From Candidatus Buchananbacteria bacterium RIFCSPLOWO2_01_FULL_39_33 (GTDB lineage: Bacteria > Patescibacteriota > Patescibacteriia > 2-01-FULL-39-33), in assembly GCA_001817505.1 (NCBI GenBank), contig MHIM01000004.1, positions 6,953-70,952 on the forward strand: a DNA stretch of 64,000 nucleotides, written 5' to 3'. A program made the position numbers and the translations under genes. Shown here one piece after another: positions 39,511 to 48,449 of the stretch. Position 1 is the first letter of the stretch. Each line of letters opens with the position of its first letter. Under the pieces are notes generated by a model that saw only the letters and a list, made by a program, of their open reading frames with translations, did no database searches and had not been told where the DNA came from.

Positions 39511-40047
39511 TTACCTGGTAATATTGATAGTGGCTCCACTTTCAGCATTGGGGGCAGTTATTGTCACCCGGCCGGTAGTGGCATCTTTCGAAATGGTATA
39601 ACCAGTGGTATCTCCGGCAGTAGCAGTCAAGCTGGGATCAACTGGCATAGAAACAATATAAGTGGGCACTAAATCGCCACTTAATTCAACCAAACCAGTG
39701 CAAGTTCCAGTATCTAAACAAATTGCCGTATCAGTCGTAGTTATAGCCGCTGGCAAGTAACCATTATTATCCAAAGAATACTGATAAACGGCATTTAAAA
39801 TAGTATTAACATCAACTTTTCTTTGAGCGTTTCTGGTATCGCCTAATTGTTTGCCGGGATTAATGGCAATAATGACAATACCGGCTAAAATGCCAATCGC
39901 CGCCACTACTAATAGAATTTCTAGCAGGGTGAATCCAGCACCACTTTTCTTCTTGGATAAGAAAGATACATTAAATTTATCACTTACATCACCGCTATCA
40001 AAGTGGTGCTGGGTGAAACCCCTTTGCTTTTGGAATAATTTTTTCAT
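39511..40047 (-). CDS. type IV pilin with a 28-codon insertion in its leader
   Basis: RGFT-QHHF...KSGA-GFTLLEILLVVAAIGILAGIVIIAINP class III signal. Confidence 0.9.
   Translation of the reverse strand: MKKLFQKQRGFTQHHFDSGDVSDKFNVSFLSKKKSGAGFTLLEILLVVAAIGILAGIVIIAINPGKQLGDTRNAQRKVDVNTILNAVYQYSLDNNGYLPAAITTTDTAICLDTGTCTGLVELSGDLVPTYIVSMPVDPSLTATAGDTTGYTISKDATTGRVTITAPNAESGATINITR
39927..40020. mobile_element. non-autonomous pilin-targeting inverted-repeat element
   Basis: TIRs ccagcaccacttt (39935-39947) and aaagtggtgctgg (40000-40012), flanked by duplicated GGWTTCACCC (GFT codons). Confidence 0.8.
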
Positions 40048-40088
40048 GTTTTTTAATTATTAATAATTATTAATATTATACCACTATA

Positions 40089-40508
40089 TTAAAAATCAGC
40101 CAATTCTTGCCAAGACAAAATATTAATTTGCGGATTAATCTGGTCAATATTTAATTTTACTTTTCTAACCGCCTTCCCAGCCTGGCCAGAGGCAATAATC
40201 AGCCGGCTTTCACTACCGGTATTAGCGACCGTAAAAGAGCAGCTGCCTTGAGTTAAAGATAAATTGCCAGAACCAGAAAAATTGATATCATTTCTTACTT
40301 CCTGAAGAGCCTGTTCAGCGCAAGCATTGGCTAAAGATTTGGCTTGAGCTGACTTTTCCAAAGACAGACTGGACTGGCTAGCGCCTAAACCTAATAAAAC
40401 CAAAGAAACTGTTATAGCCAAACCGACGGCACCGACTACTAAAACGCTAAGCAGGGTAACATAACCTTCGGTTTTGATTAATTTTTTATCTAAGCGAAGC
40501 CGAACCAT
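40089..40508 (-). CDS. minor pilin, PilX-like
   Basis: EG|YVTLLSVLVVGAVGLAI, A...A.ACAE.AL, C-terminal SWQE. Confidence 0.75.
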   Translation of the reverse strand: MVRLRLDKKLIKTEGYVTLLSVLVVGAVGLAITVSLVLLGLGASQSSLSLEKSAQAKSLANACAEQALQEVRNDINFSGSGNLSLTQGSCSFTVANTGSESRLIIASGQAGKAVRKVKLNIDQINPQINILSWQELADF

Positions 40509-41304
40509 AAAAGGTCTTGGTGTAATCATACTCTTTTTTATTCTCCGGATTAATATGCTTTAAGGTAAATGTTATTCTGACAGTGCCGGGGGTATTAGTG
40601 ATAGACAAATTATCAAAATTTAAATTAGAGGATTCTATTCTAGAGGAGGTTAGATTAACCGGTAAATTAGATCCTTCGGCCATTAAAATAGCTGTGCCTG
40701 ACAAGCTAAAAATAGTCGGGCTTAATGAAATATCAGAAACATTCAAAGATAATTGCGAGGCGCTGCTACCGGCCATTGGTGAATTAATAACCTCGGAGTT
40801 GCGAATAGTTTGAGTGATTATATTCATCACCTGCCAACCCTGTTGTTCAACTTCTGAAACAACTTGGTTATCTACCCGCGATTGTAAAATTACCGATAAA
40901 AATATGGAAACAGTTAAAAGCATAGCTGATGACAGACCGATATAAAGCAATAATTCAATTAGGGTAAACCCAGCACCACTTTTATCGTTAACGATAAAAG
41001 TGGTGCTGGGTAAACCCTCAACCTCATTATTTTTTTTATTTTTATCAATATTAATATTAATCAATCCATTTCTCTTTTTTAATTCTCTTATTGCGTTGCC
41101 ATTATATTTTAATCTTTTCTCTCTAACCCTTGCTAATCGTTCTGTTTTATATGATTCATAATAAACTAAAGTCCAAGGCATATAACGCCTTGTTGATTTT
41201 TCTTTTCCACTATTATGTTTGGAAAATCTTCTTTTTAGATCTCCCGTTGAACCGATATATATCTCACTATTCATGTTATTTTTTAATAAATAAACATAAT
41301 ACAT
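40486..41304 (-). CDS. GIY-YIG nuclease fused in frame to a type IV pilin-like protein
   Basis: MYYVYLL...IYIGSTGDLKRRFSKHNSG...LVYYESY...ARVREKRLK, then KSGAG|FTLIELLLYIG pilin body with no intervening stop. Confidence 0.85.
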   Translation of the reverse strand: MYYVYLLKNNMNSEIYIGSTGDLKRRFSKHNSGKEKSTRRYMPWTLVYYESYKTERLARVREKRLKYNGNAIRELKKRNGLININIDKNKKNNEVEGLPSTTFIVNDKSGAGFTLIELLLYIGLSSAMLLTVSIFLSVILQSRVDNQVVSEVEQQGWQVMNIITQTIRNSEVINSPMAGSSASQLSLNVSDISLSPTIFSLSGTAILMAEGSNLPVNLTSSRIESSNLNFDNLSITNTPGTVRITFTLKHINPENKKEYDYTKTFYGSASLR

Positions 41305-41332
41305 ATAATTAAAAGTGGTGCTGGGTGAAACC
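40962..41332 (-). mobile_element. nuclease-carrying pilin-targeting element
   Basis: left end GGTTTCACCCAGCACCACTTTT (41311-41332), GIY-YIG ORF, 44-bp perfect palindrome 40968-41011 flanked by direct repeats gggtaaaccc. Confidence 0.8.
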
Positions 41333-41353
41333 TTTTTTATCAATGACCATAAA

Positions 41354-43225
41354 TTAAGGAATAATATTGCTTATTAATTTAGTTGAACCGTCAAGCATAA
41401 TAAAATTTATACTCAAAGTAGTACCAGTCATATTTTTATTAAAAATAAGATAGGTTAGAGGGTAAGTAACTGATGGTAATAAAGTAAAGTTGCTGATGTT
41501 CTCGGTCGCACCCGAGTTATTGCTGCCGGTCCAAACTGAAACGGCATTAATAGTAATTCCTGTTATTTTGGTGCCACTAAATGCTCCAGTCCAAGAGACA
41601 ATCATTTGATCTAAAATTATGTCGGCGGCGCCAATATTAGAAATGGTCAAACCGATTACTCTTTTATTATTAGTAGAATCTATGCCGGCACCAGTAATAT
41701 TAACGTTTAACAAATCAGCCTGCGATTGCGCTAAAGTAGTGGCGCTGGGAACATCAGACAAAAGTGAGGTATTAGGCACTTCATCAGAGGTCTTGATGGC
41801 AAAATAATAAGTAGTGTTAGAAGACAGACCGGAAACTGTCAGAGATTGAGCAGTGCCAGCTATCAAAGGCGCTGGTTCGCCTGATACTTGAGTGGCTGTT
41901 GCCCAATTAGCTTCAGTGATCAGTGAAGTTGAATAGCGTATATCATAGGTTGTAGCCGTACCGGTATCACCATCATCACCGGGAGAAGTCCAACTTAATA
42001 AAACTGAATTCAGAGTTATATTGGAAATAGTTAAATTGGTAATAGCAGCTGGCGATGTTGTATCGACTGAAAGCGGCAAGGTAGCAACGCTGGGAACATT
42101 AGACAAAAGCGAGGTATTGGGCACTTCATCAGCGGTCTTAATGGCCAAGTAATAAATGGTTGAAGGTAATAAATTGGAAACTGTCGCTGATTGAGCAGTG
42201 CCAGCTACTTGAGGTATTGGTTCACCAGTTAATTGTAAAGCCGTTGCCCAATTGCTATCATTGATCGGATTAGTAGAATATCTAATATCATAAGAAGCGG
42301 CTGTTCCTGTATTGCCATCATCACCGGGAGCAGTCCAGGACAAATCAATTGAATCAGAAGTTGGATTAGAAACTGATAAATCAATTACCGCTGATGGCGG
42401 AGTGATATCGGCAATTGTTCCGGGAGAAAAAGTAGCGGTAGCAATTGAGCCATCAGCCATAATAAAATCAAGAGTAATGGTCGTGCCCGTCATATTCCTG
42501 TTAAAATCTAAAAAGTCAATTAGATAAACAGTATTGCCGACTGGCAGAGTAAAATCGGTAATATTTAAGGTAGTGCCTGAATTAGCGCTGCCACTCCAAA
42601 CTGAACTGCCGGCTAAATAAACATTATTTATTTTAGAACCGCCTTCTCCATTAATCCAAGAAACAACCATTTGATTAATAGTTATATCAGCTAAGCCGTT
42701 ATTTTTCAAAGTTAAACCAATTATCTTGGTATTATCTAAAGCATCAAGATCAGAAGAACTGCTATCAATAATCAAATCAGTAGCTTGAGAAGTTCCCAGA
42801 GCCATCCAATAAGTCAGATAAGTGTCTAAAGAAACACTGCCAGATCTTTGTAGATTCTGCTGCCAAGTTACAGTGGAAGTTATTTTTTTAGTATCGCTAT
42901 TGATAGGACTGATGGTAATTTGACGGGTAAAATTTCCAATAACATCACTGGAACCGGCAATATTCCAACGACCGCCGACAACTTGCAAGCCATAAGTGCC
43001 ATCAATCAAATTACTAAAATCATCATCTCTGATATTTTTAACCGCTTCCAATCCCTCCTCGGCTAAAAAAACCGCTTGAGCTCTTTGGCCAGATAAAACT
43101 GTGCTTTCTTGGCCATAAATTATAGCCCCGACCAAAGCAGTAGTTATCAGAATAAACACCGAGCTAGCCAAAATAACCTCTACCAAAGAAAAACCACGAT
43201 TAGTAACTAACCAATCCTTTGGCAT
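41354..43225 (-). CDS. large pilin-like protein with two fibronectin type III repeats (putative adhesin)
   Basis: RG|FSLVEVILA; two D.T.P.A...LSWT.PGDDG.TGTA..YDIRYST repeats; probable start MPKDW. Confidence 0.85.
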   Translation of the reverse strand: MPKDWLVTNRGFSLVEVILASSVFILITTALVGAIIYGQESTVLSGQRAQAVFLAEEGLEAVKNIRDDDFSNLIDGTYGLQVVGGRWNIAGSSDVIGNFTRQITISPINSDTKKITSTVTWQQNLQRSGSVSLDTYLTYWMALGTSQATDLIIDSSSSDLDALDNTKIIGLTLKNNGLADITINQMVVSWINGEGGSKINNVYLAGSSVWSGSANSGTTLNITDFTLPVGNTVYLIDFLDFNRNMTGTTITLDFIMADGSIATATFSPGTIADITPPSAVIDLSVSNPTSDSIDLSWTAPGDDGNTGTAASYDIRYSTNPINDSNWATALQLTGEPIPQVAGTAQSATVSNLLPSTIYYLAIKTADEVPNTSLLSNVPSVATLPLSVDTTSPAAITNLTISNITLNSVLLSWTSPGDDGDTGTATTYDIRYSTSLITEANWATATQVSGEPAPLIAGTAQSLTVSGLSSNTTYYFAIKTSDEVPNTSLLSDVPSATTLAQSQADLLNVNITGAGIDSTNNKRVIGLTISNIGAADIILDQMIVSWTGAFSGTKITGITINAVSVWTGSNNSGATENISNFTLLPSVTYPLTYLIFNKNMTGTTLSINFIMLDGSTKLISNIIP

Positions 43226-43649
43226 TAATTGTGATAGTTTTTGAATCATTAATAGTGGTTAAAATAAGCGTGCCAGAACTTTGCGGCCAGCCCGTGAATT
43301 TATTAAAAATTATTTCTTGATTGCCTGAAGGAGTTATGGTCTTAGCTAAATCAAAAACTTCATCAAAGCCGATATCGCGACTAAAATAACTGGCGCCTTT
43401 AAAAATTGTTATTTTATTGTTGCCAACATAAACACCCCAAGTCATGTCCCCTTCAACTGCTTGAGATAATAACTGTGCCCTTCTTAATGATTGGGCTACA
43501 GTATTGACAGCCAAATCAAGATCATTTCTGACTTGAAAGGACTGATAAACGGGTACACCAATACCAGCGATAATAGCAATCACTGCTATTGAAAGAAGCA
43601 TTTCCAGCAAAGTAAAACCAGTAATTTTATTAAACGATTTAAAACCCAT
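43200..43649 (-). CDS. pilin/pseudopilin (FimT/GspH-like)
   Basis: TG|FTLLEMLLSIAVIAII. Confidence 0.85.
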   Translation of the reverse strand: MGFKSFNKITGFTLLEMLLSIAVIAIIAGIGVPVYQSFQVRNDLDLAVNTVAQSLRRAQLLSQAVEGDMTWGVYVGNNKITIFKGASYFSRDIGFDEVFDLAKTITPSGNQEIIFNKFTGWPQSSGTLILTTINDSKTITINAKGLVSY

Positions 43650-43659
43650 AATAGAATTT

Positions 43660-45132
43660 TTACTGGTTGATAAGTTCTACATAATCACCAAAGACCCAGC
43701 CAGTAGCGGCTGAAGGTAAAATTATTTCATACCAGCCAGCTTGCTCACTTTGATATTCATAAATCTCATCAGGATAAATCCTTAATAAGATACGGCCATT
43801 TAAATTGGGATTATCTCTGACATTTAAATAACCAACGGGGGTTGGTTTGATTTTTAATTTTTTAAGAGAAATAATATTCTCGGTAGTGGTAGCCAGTGGT
43901 TGTTCGGCTATTTCTTCAATTTCAATAATCGGTGAAGGCGGCAAAGGAGTTGAAGTTGATGACGACTGGCTCAAGCCGCCAATCAAGCTATAAATCGGTA
44001 AGATTACCGCCAAAGCCACCGCCACCACGCCCAGCCAGATTATTATCAAAAGAACCGGTTCAAGAATAATGGCTAAATTTTTAGTACTGATTTCTGTTTT
44101 CTCTTCAAAAATCTCGCCAATTTTTAACAAGGTCTCTGGCAGACAGCCTGATTTTTCAGCCGAACCGATCATTTGTTGAACGGGAATAGTTATTAATTTA
44201 TCACTATTTTTATAAAGGCCAAAAGTCCTATATATAGAATTGCCATTTTCAAGGCTTTTTTGTAAAAAATAAAAAAACTTTTTATAATTATAAAAAGTTG
44301 TAGCTTCAGCCAACGAGCTAATTGAATTAACAATTGGCAAGCCAGCCTTAAGCAGAGTACCTAAAATATAACCCAACTGGGCCATTTGCACTTGCTGGAT
44401 TAACTTGCCAACGCCGGGAATTTTAAAAAGAAGATACTGGCCAATGAATTTGGTCTTATAAAATATGAAGACAAAATAAATTATCAGCAGTAAAAATAAA
44501 ATTGAAATCGGAAAAAAAATAAAACCATAAACCTCTATAAATTTGCCAGTGGCTATTAAAACCTTAGTTAAAAATGGCAAGTCCAATCTTAATTGATTAA
44601 AAACGGAAGCTAAGCGGGGCAGAATAAACCAAGAAATCCCAATACCAATAACGCCAGTCAAAACTAAAACCAGCACCGGATACATCATAGCTGAATTTAC
44701 TTTTGACCTAAAAGACCTTTCTTTTTGCTGTTGGATAACTATTACCTTTAAATTATCGGCCAATTTGCCAGTTTCTTCGCCTATCCTGATCAGTGAAATA
44801 ATATGCTCGGGAAACAATTTACTTTCAATTAATGATTGGGATAAGGAAAAACCGGCATCAATATTACCTTTTAAATCACTGACTATGTCTTTTAATTTTT
44901 TTGATCTAATATCTGATTGGATGGCGTCTAAAGAAGATAAAAGATCCAGGCCTGATAATAAGAGCATAGATAAGTTTTCTATGAGATAATCTTTTTCTGC
45001 CGCCAAGCCGAAATTAGAAATAAAAGGCAGGTTAAAGCGCTTTTGATGAGTAGTTTTATATTCTTTTATGGCCTTAACCCGAGCTGGTAAAATTGTAGCT
45101 GTATTTTTTTTAACCTTTCTTTGACTAACCAT
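43660..45132 (-). CDS. pilC: type IV pilus platform protein PilC/GspF with C-terminal SH3-like domain
   Basis: GEETGKL, AMMYP, AEKSGCL, LEPVL; C-terminal YLNVRDNP...GWYEI...TGWVFGDYV. Confidence 0.88.
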   Translation of the reverse strand: MVSQRKVKKNTATILPARVKAIKEYKTTHQKRFNLPFISNFGLAAEKDYLIENLSMLLLSGLDLLSSLDAIQSDIRSKKLKDIVSDLKGNIDAGFSLSQSLIESKLFPEHIISLIRIGEETGKLADNLKVIVIQQQKERSFRSKVNSAMMYPVLVLVLTGVIGIGISWFILPRLASVFNQLRLDLPFLTKVLIATGKFIEVYGFIFFPISILFLLLIIYFVFIFYKTKFIGQYLLFKIPGVGKLIQQVQMAQLGYILGTLLKAGLPIVNSISSLAEATTFYNYKKFFYFLQKSLENGNSIYRTFGLYKNSDKLITIPVQQMIGSAEKSGCLPETLLKIGEIFEEKTEISTKNLAIILEPVLLIIIWLGVVAVALAVILPIYSLIGGLSQSSSTSTPLPPSPIIEIEEIAEQPLATTTENIISLKKLKIKPTPVGYLNVRDNPNLNGRILLRIYPDEIYEYQSEQAGWYEIILPSAATGWVFGDYVELINQ

Positions 45133-47249: not shown

Positions 47250-48449
47250 TCAATTTATTTTAACAACACCGCTTCTTAAAACAATAATTTTATCATCTTC
47301 TATTTTTATCAGAGTTGAGGGTTCTGATTCTAATTTACCCTGGCCAAGGTAGAAATCTACAGTATTGCTAAAATACCTTTTAGCTTGCTTAATGGTTAAA
47401 GCCGGCTGTCGTCCTTCAGGATTAGCGCTGGGCGCTACCAGCGGACCGGTTTTTTTAAGCAGAGTTAAGAGCCACTGGTTATTAGGCAATCTAAAAGCCA
47501 AAGAATTAGTGCCACGATGCAAGTATTTTAATTTTTTATTGACTGATAGAACAATGCTAATTTGTCCTGGCCAATATTTCTGGAGAATTTTTTTGGTTGG
47601 TAAATCAATTTTTACTCCAAATTTTTTTAAGTCAAATAAAGAACTGATTAAGATAATAAATGGCTTGTCTGGTTTTCTTTTTTTGATTTTATAAATCCTC
47701 TCAATTGTTTTTTTATTTTCTGCCAAGCCGACTAAGCCGTAAAGAGTGTCGGTGGGCATAACGCCAACACCGCCATTTTTTAAAATTTTAATTTGCTGAT
47801 TCAAATATCTTTTAGCCAGATCATTAAGATTAACAACATCACCGGCTGTAAATTGTCCGACTCTGATTCTTTTTAGGCCGGTTAAATAACCGCCAACTCC
47901 CAAATCTTGACCGATATCCTTGGCCAGCGACCTGATATAAACGCCCGGACCAGTAACAACTTTTATTTTTAAATTAGGATATTGATATTTTAAAATTTTA
48001 ATATTTTTGATTTCTACCGGTCGAGATTTTAATTCAATCACTTGGCCGGCTCTGGCTAATTTATAAGCCCGCTGACCGGAAACTTTAATGGCGCTGTAAG
48101 CCGGCGGAGCTTGTTTGATTATACCAGTAAATTTCTTTAAAACATTTTCTACTTCAACTTTATGAACTTTATGAACTTTCAAACTTTTAACTTTCTGGCC
48201 TTCCCCATCATCGGTACTGCTGGTTAATCCCAGTTTTATATCAGCCAAATATTCTTTCTCTTTTTTGACTATTTGGCTTAATTGTTTGGTGGCTTCTCGC
48301 CCCAAACCCACGACTAAAATACCTTCAGCTAAGGGATCAAGTGTGCCAGCGTGACCAACTTTCTGTTCACCAGTAAGTTTTTTTATTTTAGCCATCAAAG
48401 CAAAAGAAGTCGGGCCTTGGGGTTTATAAATTGGAAAAATATTATTCAT
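47250..48449 (-). CDS. truB: TruB tRNA pseudouridine-55 synthase fused to TsaC/Sua5 threonylcarbamoyl-AMP synthase
   Basis: GHAGTLDPLAEG, PPAYSAIKVSG, GVYIRSL; then PTDTLYGL, KRKPDK, WPG, APSAN, PSTLI. Confidence 0.9.
   Translation of the reverse strand: MNNIFPIYKPQGPTSFALMAKIKKLTGEQKVGHAGTLDPLAEGILVVGLGREATKQLSQIVKKEKEYLADIKLGLTSSTDDGEGQKVKSLKVHKVHKVEVENVLKKFTGIIKQAPPAYSAIKVSGQRAYKLARAGQVIELKSRPVEIKNIKILKYQYPNLKIKVVTGPGVYIRSLAKDIGQDLGVGGYLTGLKRIRVGQFTAGDVVNLNDLAKRYLNQQIKILKNGGVGVMPTDTLYGLVGLAENKKTIERIYKIKKRKPDKPFIILISSLFDLKKFGVKIDLPTKKILQKYWPGQISIVLSVNKKLKYLHRGTNSLAFRLPNNQWLLTLLKKTGPLVAPSANPEGRQPALTIKQAKRYFSNTVDFYLGQGKLESEPSTLIKIEDDKIIVLRSGVVKIN

Follow-up and report, generated by a model that had tools for sequence, protein, structure and literature searches.

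The gene considered here lies on the minus strand of the 64,000-nucleotide stretch of DNA that was analysed (the window), within a type IV pilus operon that also encodes an ATPase, a platform protein, and other pilins. To judge from the names carried by relatives, the host belongs to the Patescibacteria. The native start of the gene (ATG 41350) opens the leader MVIDKKGFTQHHF, which ends at a stop codon (41311-41309). A second ATG (41304), 4 nt past this stop, begins a 272-aa open reading frame in which a nuclease and a prepilin are joined. A GIY-YIG domain (PF01541) covers residues 1-71 of the product (E 3e-16, Pfam), and a prepilin N_methyl-like motif is found at residues 111-132, with a score of 16.1 bits that is under the cut-off of 21.2. 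The predicted cut between Gly112 and Phe113 would split off a leader of 112 aa from a mature pilin of 160 aa. The features of a class III signal peptide are present in the fusion (hydrophilic leader ending in Gly, hydrophobic helix, Glu5), with a leader longer than the reviewed prepilin range of 6-26 aa. The 272-aa frame is open through a perfect 44-nt palindrome (40968-41011), is also open upstream to TTG 41343, and contains an in-frame TTG at codon 81. An earlier note, made from the letters alone, had described the native leader interrupted by a stop behind QHHF, the new ATG 4 nt from it, the palindrome read through without a stop, and the division into 112 and 160 residues; all of these were confirmed in the sequence.

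Three neighbouring genes deserve a mention. A 631-aa pilin-like protein (window 41354-43249) has two fibronectin type III repeats and is longer than its family relatives. The PilC-type platform protein (window 43660-45132) ends with a C-terminal SH3 domain. Finally, a 399-aa open reading frame (window 47250-48449) presumably encodes a TruB plus Sua5/TsaC fusion, judging by eye.

Anatomy of the Insert

The insert measures 357 bp and is made up of two tandem units, a GIY-YIG cassette of about 311 bp and then a 42-bp hairpin (Table 1). The first unit begins with the left arm (41325), continues with the nuclease, and ends at what is probably an eroded right arm (41028-41015); TTTA and the hairpin (41010-40969) follow. 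The right arm of the hairpin encodes KSGAG. The 4-mers bordering the composite insert differ by one letter (TTCA vs. TTTA). The arm CCAGCACCACTTT has five exact copies and one match with two mismatches (chance expectation 1.08). All five exact arms of the 973-kb genome fall in the pilin locus, within two pilin genes about 1 kb apart.

Table 1. Features of the interrupted pilin gene and of the neighbouring pilin leader, in window coordinates (the arrow marks the predicted cut).
Feature	Position	Strand	Basis
Original start and leader of the pilin, turned into an upstream open reading frame of 13 codons (MVIDKKGFTQHHF, then stop) ending inside the left arm	41309..41350	-	Empty orthologue P0006 (80% identity) begins MVVNKKG↓FT
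Left copy of the 4-nt target TTCA (Phe codon and first base of Thr)	41326..41329	-	Family-wide 4-nt duplication
Left inverted-repeat arm of the nuclease cassette	41310..41325	-	Sequence
Single-domain GIY-YIG nuclease, residues 1-81; Y5, Y16, G18, R26, H30, E62 intact	41062..41304	-	PF01541, conservation, pS>pN, structure model
AT-rich linker in frame; TTG codon 81 a possible internal start	41029..41061	-	Sequence
Right arm of the nuclease cassette, probably eroded, 9/14 letters as in the family right arm; then TTTA (41014-41011)	41015..41028	-	Assigned by eye; intact right-arm/TTTA/left-arm junctions in L024, L146
Nuclease-less hairpin unit of 42 bp, core of the 44-nt palindrome; reads PSTTFIVNDKSGAG; supplies Gly-1	40969..41010	-	Sequence
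Right-hand copy of the 4-nt target, TTTA, where the mature pilin (FTLIE) begins	40965..40968	-	Sequence
Mature minor type IV pilin, 160 aa, uninterrupted	40486..40968	-	Domain search, orthologues
Second nuclease-less unit of 80 bp, flanked by an exact duplicate of TTCA; adds 84 nt to the leader of major-type pilin gene 40047-39511 and keeps the frame	39934..40013	-	Sequence

Could this layout have arisen during assembly at the palindrome? Contigs do break there: one contig from another run covers 39800-41004 and another 40975-41700, the two overlap at the palindrome centre, and none of those listed spans the whole insert. However, contigs of four other runs from four studies, none marked as a possible source, match letter for letter, without gaps or joints, and the same layout is repeated in many genomes. 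An assembly artefact is thus largely refuted and its remaining probability is negligible. No joint to the empty form was seen in the contigs of the four runs; contigs drop rare variants and are therefore silent on excision.

A Family of Mobile Units

A search of 34 other genomes of the order recovered nine orthologues of the interrupted pilin. All nine are empty, with leaders of 4-20 aa; none of their loci has a GIY-YIG gene, and the downstream gene is kept at eight of the nine. In addition, an empty/occupied pair exists within the genus: a pilin on contig C36 of this genome is empty (GGT TTTA CTTTA), and in genome G003 its orthologue is occupied by an 80-bp unit between two copies of TTTA. 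Empty orthologous alleles, to which the earlier note had tied its idea of an insertion, thus exist.

A scan of metagenomes for hairpins gave at least 122 loci, 114 of them distinct and usable, 80 with family-type ends. Among the matches listed, a 4-nt direct repeat flanks 28 of these 80 loci vs. 10.1 in oriented shuffles (maximum 19), and repeats other than TTTA are found at 7 vs. 0.7. Eighteen of 28 loci taken from genomes have paired arms, with an exact 4-nt repeat at 13 of the 18 and five different 4-mers. The terminal inverted repeats of the family measure 14-21 bp. A duplication of 8-10 nt was considered and rejected, the strongest signal of an offset scan being 4 nt at a fixed offset. 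Together, the 4-nt repeats at paired arms and the empty/occupied pair indicate that the ends are terminal inverted repeats and that the target is duplicated. Judged from these ends, the unit itself is almost certainly mobile. Hence, the view that a mobile element sits at prepilin cleavage codons gains support from the ends, the target duplication, and the empty alleles. This is not the case for homing into an empty double-stranded site: a 4-nt target duplication favours insertion-sequence-like integration, and nothing shows classical homing. No GIY-YIG enzyme is known to make target duplications.

A related nuclease (E≤1e-24) occurs in 101 of 401 sampled genomes of the class. The 30 top-ranking loci were examined, together with 15 more. 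A perfect inverted repeat of at least 10 nt surrounds the gene at 33 of the 41 nuclease loci with enough flank, in agreement with the proposed co-occurrence of the nuclease with these repeats, and the own arm pair is longer than every cross pair at 21 of the 41. The arm sequence varies with nuclease lineage and target class. An exact 15-nt arm search, which retrieved only 2 of 400 other genomes phylum-wide, was too strict because the arms vary. At the level of the class, the arm is present in 29 of 400 other genomes, with up to 34 copies each. Six genomes (G656, G768, G579, G668, G712, and G751) each have 14-34 arms; their units measure about 35-45, 80, and 100-110 bp. Nuclease-less derivatives of the family measure 33-110 bp. 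If our reading is right, arms that change by lineage would amount to a natural library of specificities.

Among the matches listed, 10 of the 114 short hairpins lie at pilin junctions, far above what 8 prepilin junctions per Mb in this genome would give; survival bias may contribute to this excess. The repeat, which had been regarded as pilin-specific, is a general mobile end that in most cases lies outside pilins. Nine of the ten pilin-junction hairpins (again among the matches listed) add 3n+1 bases (for example L031, L047, L114, L126, and L131), and their leader is therefore read from a non-native frame. They are perhaps remains of composite inserts.

Sister lineages of the nuclease are located at tRNA, rRNA, or RNase P RNA genes or between genes. 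By their motifs, we place several of these GIY-YIG cassettes (L173, L186, L191, L237, L155, L185, and L192-L194) in 16S/23S rRNA, at RNase P RNA, and at the 5′ ends of tRNAs. Viral contigs contain only five distant relatives of the nuclease (31-52% identity). The catalytic residues are near-invariant, in fused and stand-alone nucleases alike. In all 105 pairs formed by 15 loci, pS is greater than pN, and the ratio has a median of 0.15 in the 46 unsaturated pairs; by this measure, the nuclease is under purifying selection. Its structure model has a pLDDT of 88.7. A fold search with this model gave no match at E≤0.001, the best rows being UPF0213, HIGLE, and Slx1, and in the Atlas the nuclease matches only GIY-YIG clusters.

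Terminal inverted repeats with a 4-nt duplication are the classic signature of a transposase. The arms might therefore be those of miniature elements (MITEs) that an unrelated transposase of the DDE or HUH type mobilises in trans, with the GIY-YIG gene as cargo and pilin leaders as rare tolerant coding sites. This would suit the fact that most copies are devoid of nuclease and lie outside pilins. Moreover, none of the 15 matches fetched (of 22) from five arm-rich genomes is a nuclease bracketed by arms, and Y1 transposase genes are present in all five genomes tested. However, no arm pair encloses more than 308 bp as one unit in the 28 loci, none of 12 transposase loci is bracketed by arms, and arm sequence tracks nuclease lineage and target class. 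Of the two transposase families tested, DDE_Tnp_1 occurs in only two of the five genomes and is absent here. A non-exhaustive search found no DDE, HUH, or serine transposase in an autonomous unit, the longest units (299-311 bp) having GIY-YIG only. We consider transposition in trans unlikely.

Recurrent Association with Prepilins

Among the best 30 loci of the class sample, nine are at prepilin codons and seven of the nine are fused, this locus counted. At the two others, the nuclease stops and the pilin gets a new start. L193, scored as pilin-adjacent by the script, was counted as non-pilin: it is a tRNA-side cassette with the motif 416 nt away. The nine pilin-site loci group with one non-pilin, epimerase-site locus (2 label changes, 8 after shuffling; SH-aLRT 81). 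With nine of the ten clade loci at pilins among the best 30, one nuclease clade is, by its phylogenetic grouping, specialised for prepilin G↓F codons. Six of the eight other pilin-site loci in this set are fused, vs. one-third by frame alone (P 0.02).

When relatives are clustered at 50%, 87 of the best 150 and 64 of the top 75 are prepilin fusions, a share that this clustering inflates. Clustering at 90% gives 84 short, unfused relatives vs. 70 long ones, from unequal candidate sets. G↓FxxxE is present in 66 of the 70 long relatives, which include one near copy of the 272-aa protein; the other four are pilin-like by eye, and no fusion partner other than a pilin was seen among the 70. In total, 141 distinct fusions were collected. 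All 141 have Gly at -1 although the search pattern allowed G/A/S; Glu at +5, also in all 141, is circular since the pattern required it, and was left unused. The 132 fusions long enough to classify belong to 22 pilin families. Leaders are basic and without a transmembrane-like window in any of the 141, and linkers span 5-51 aa, with a Met in only 11. The claim of a recurrent nuclease-prepilin fusion therefore stands as regards the number of fusions and of pilin families. It does not extend to the close relatives as a whole, about half of which are unfused; at L166, L168, and L054 the nuclease is at a pilin and unfused.

Nucleases that are 91-93% identical occur on unrelated pilins, and pairs at ≥75% identity are on different pilin families in 69 of 112 cases. 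In a tree of 109 rows from the five largest pilin families, the family label must change 44 times, compared with a minimum of 4 and with 57.3 after shuffling; this tree is quick and weak, with 3 of 103 branches at ≥95, and 44 is closer to the shuffled value than the resolved branches alone can force. Taken together, these comparisons imply that the nuclease moves between pilin genes.

Even with a real element, the fusion could be incidental read-through, the pilin being made from an internal or coupled start and the nuclease remaining fused, membrane-anchored, or idle at such loci. Besides TTG codon 81 here, an ATG, GTG, or TTG is in frame within 35 codons of the Gly at 14 of 15 fused loci (ATG at five), and such internal starts might yield a pilin with no nuclease attached. 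Unfused pilin-adjacent copies have their own starts, and the non-native frame at nine of the ten short pilin-junction hairpins among the matches listed goes in the same direction. On the other hand, linkers can be as short as 5 residues and rarely contain Met, at L025 a TTG lying in the nuclease is the one start in that 35-codon range, and fusions are commoner than expected from frame alone. Thus, mere read-through appears improbable.

A third possibility is that the nuclease was domesticated by the host as an Ssn-like filter on DNA imported by the pilus, co-produced with the pilin. Purifying selection on the nuclease would agree with such a role, as would the published properties of SsnA, which cuts single-stranded DNA at its hairpins and lowers transformation (available sections of PMC11893778). 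However, the nuclease is rare and patchy (8 of 400 other genomes of the class among the best loci fetched), absent from all nine orthologues, and scattered over 22 pilin families, and this genome has only five arms. Domestication is therefore very improbable.

In P0018 and P0036, orthologues of the same pilin carry unrelated small nucleases, DUF559 and PDDEXK_3, as leaders. Hence, the leader niche may be common to several element families.

Possible Mechanism and Known Systems

The explanation that we favour, with a probability of about 0.58 for the whole, combines a minimal insertion-sequence-like element, tandem insertion, translational restart, and release of the nuclease by PilD. The element would be composed of inverted-repeat arms around one 81-aa GIY-YIG gene and would have short nuclease-less derivatives. 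It would integrate at a 4-nt T-T-N-A and duplicate it, the pilin target being the TTYA of Gly↓Phe-Thr codons. The right arm ends with GGT GCT GG(G/A). Combined with the duplicated TTYA, this end means that every pilin insertion rebuilds Gly-Ala-Gly↓Phe-Thr before the mature pilin. At the present locus, the nuclease cassette and the short unit would result from tandem insertion at the regenerated site. With the native start cut off by a stop, ribosomes would restart 4 nt on at the nuclease ATG and produce one 272-aa prepilin. Its basic, non-hydrophobic 112-aa leader would stay cytoplasmic, and PilD would cleave it off, setting the nuclease free and leaving a normal pilin.

Prepilins are cut by PilD on the cytoplasmic side, just behind the Gly. 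A PilD with both domains is encoded on contig C36 of the same genome, which also has the assembly ATPase and the platform protein. According to the available sections of two papers, the hydrophilic prepilin leader stays in the cytoplasm and PilD alone cuts after the Gly (PMC4471445, PMC10191384), needing no partner (PMC10191384); reviewed leaders have 6-26 aa (PMC4471445). On our reading, PilD should be able to remove an entire folded domain, an activity of which a literature search at the level of listed records found no report. We believe that the fusion is probably translated and its so long leader cleaved. By analogy with SsnA, the nuclease may well recognise its own arms, probably as a single-stranded stem, and drive movement with the help of host repair. 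Overall, the sequence evidence for a real, recurrent, mobile GIY-YIG cassette with a prepilin-codon clade is strong, and PilD release of the nuclease and nuclease-driven mobility are plausible.

Among known systems, the closest comparison is with the Ssn family (cd10448). SsnA binds its hairpin in single-stranded form and cleaves next to it, and an IS-like NTS-ssnA-NTS layout is noted by Chenal et al. (2025) (PMC11893778, available sections). As in Ssn, a single-domain GIY-YIG protein of less than 100 aa (81-aa core here, PF01541) is tied to inverted repeats. In contrast with Ssn, the gene here lies between the arms of one pair, and there is a duplication of a 4-nt target. No NTS was found in the window, and an SRM was found near the nuclease (-300/+400 nt) at 0 of 45 loci, which rules out membership in the Ssn/SRM group. 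The genome does contain a separate Ssn-like, SRM-adjacent GIY-YIG gene (G000, contig C24, near 4766) and 11 SRM matches genome-wide, one of which is in the 5′ part of an open reading frame just after a pilin on C36. This SRM-adjacent gene is 41% identical to the nuclease over 66 aa, the weakest of five paralogues.

GIY-YIG insertions in rRNA genes of CPR bacteria that are not introns and seem outside homing were described by Tsurumaki et al. (2024) (PMC11270868, available sections). The host group is the same, and sister cassettes of our family lie in 16S/23S rRNA, as assigned from motifs; the published insertions are probably such cassettes. However, ends, target duplication, and protein-gene targets do not figure in the available parts of that account, and the word "pilin" appears 0 times in its main text (PMC11270868). 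If correct, our reading would explain these insertions in Patescibacteria rRNA genes, so far catalogued but unexplained.

The short units also resemble bacterial MITEs and the Rickettsia RPE, which are short units with terminal inverted repeats and target duplication, some of them in frame in genes. RPE-type inserts remain in the mature protein and are not known to encode an enzyme. Here, in contrast, an enzyme-coding partner exists and the insert is in the part that is cut off. Homing endonucleases of group I introns, inteins, and IStrons are selfish nucleases at conserved host-gene sites whose product is restored. The present unit of about 300 bp differs in being almost all nuclease open reading frame, in its proposed removal by a host peptidase, and in its target duplication. 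There is no non-coding room for a ribozyme or an intein around the nuclease, and the group I intron endonuclease model gives 27 bits vs. a cut-off of 56. DDE and HUH insertion sequences share terminal inverted repeats, a short target duplication, and non-autonomous derivatives, whereas the sole open reading frame of this element is a GIY-YIG domain.

The earlier note knew of no described element class working in this way. Our literature search, covering few subscription journals, likewise found no description of pilin-leader elements. If our reading is right, selfish DNA would persist in a protein gene without RNA or protein splicing, inside a leader that the host removes, and an 81-residue GIY-YIG protein would rank among the smallest mobility enzymes. 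The odd long leaders of many Patescibacteria pilins would also be explained; such fused genes are annotated as nucleases and overlooked as pilins. More tentatively, and at somewhat less than even odds, we suggest a self-mobilising class with the 81-aa GIY-YIG nuclease as transposition enzyme, one prepilin-codon clade of which would use PilD for "splicing", possibly linking nuclease release to the building of the pili that import the DNA through which the element spreads.

A last observation concerns a sister cassette inserted in GGAGF codons (L172:1440-1830 and P0331). A replacement N-terminus follows its right arm, which amounts to the same trick without a peptidase. The target is presumably the start of an NAD-dependent epimerase gene, to judge from its motif.
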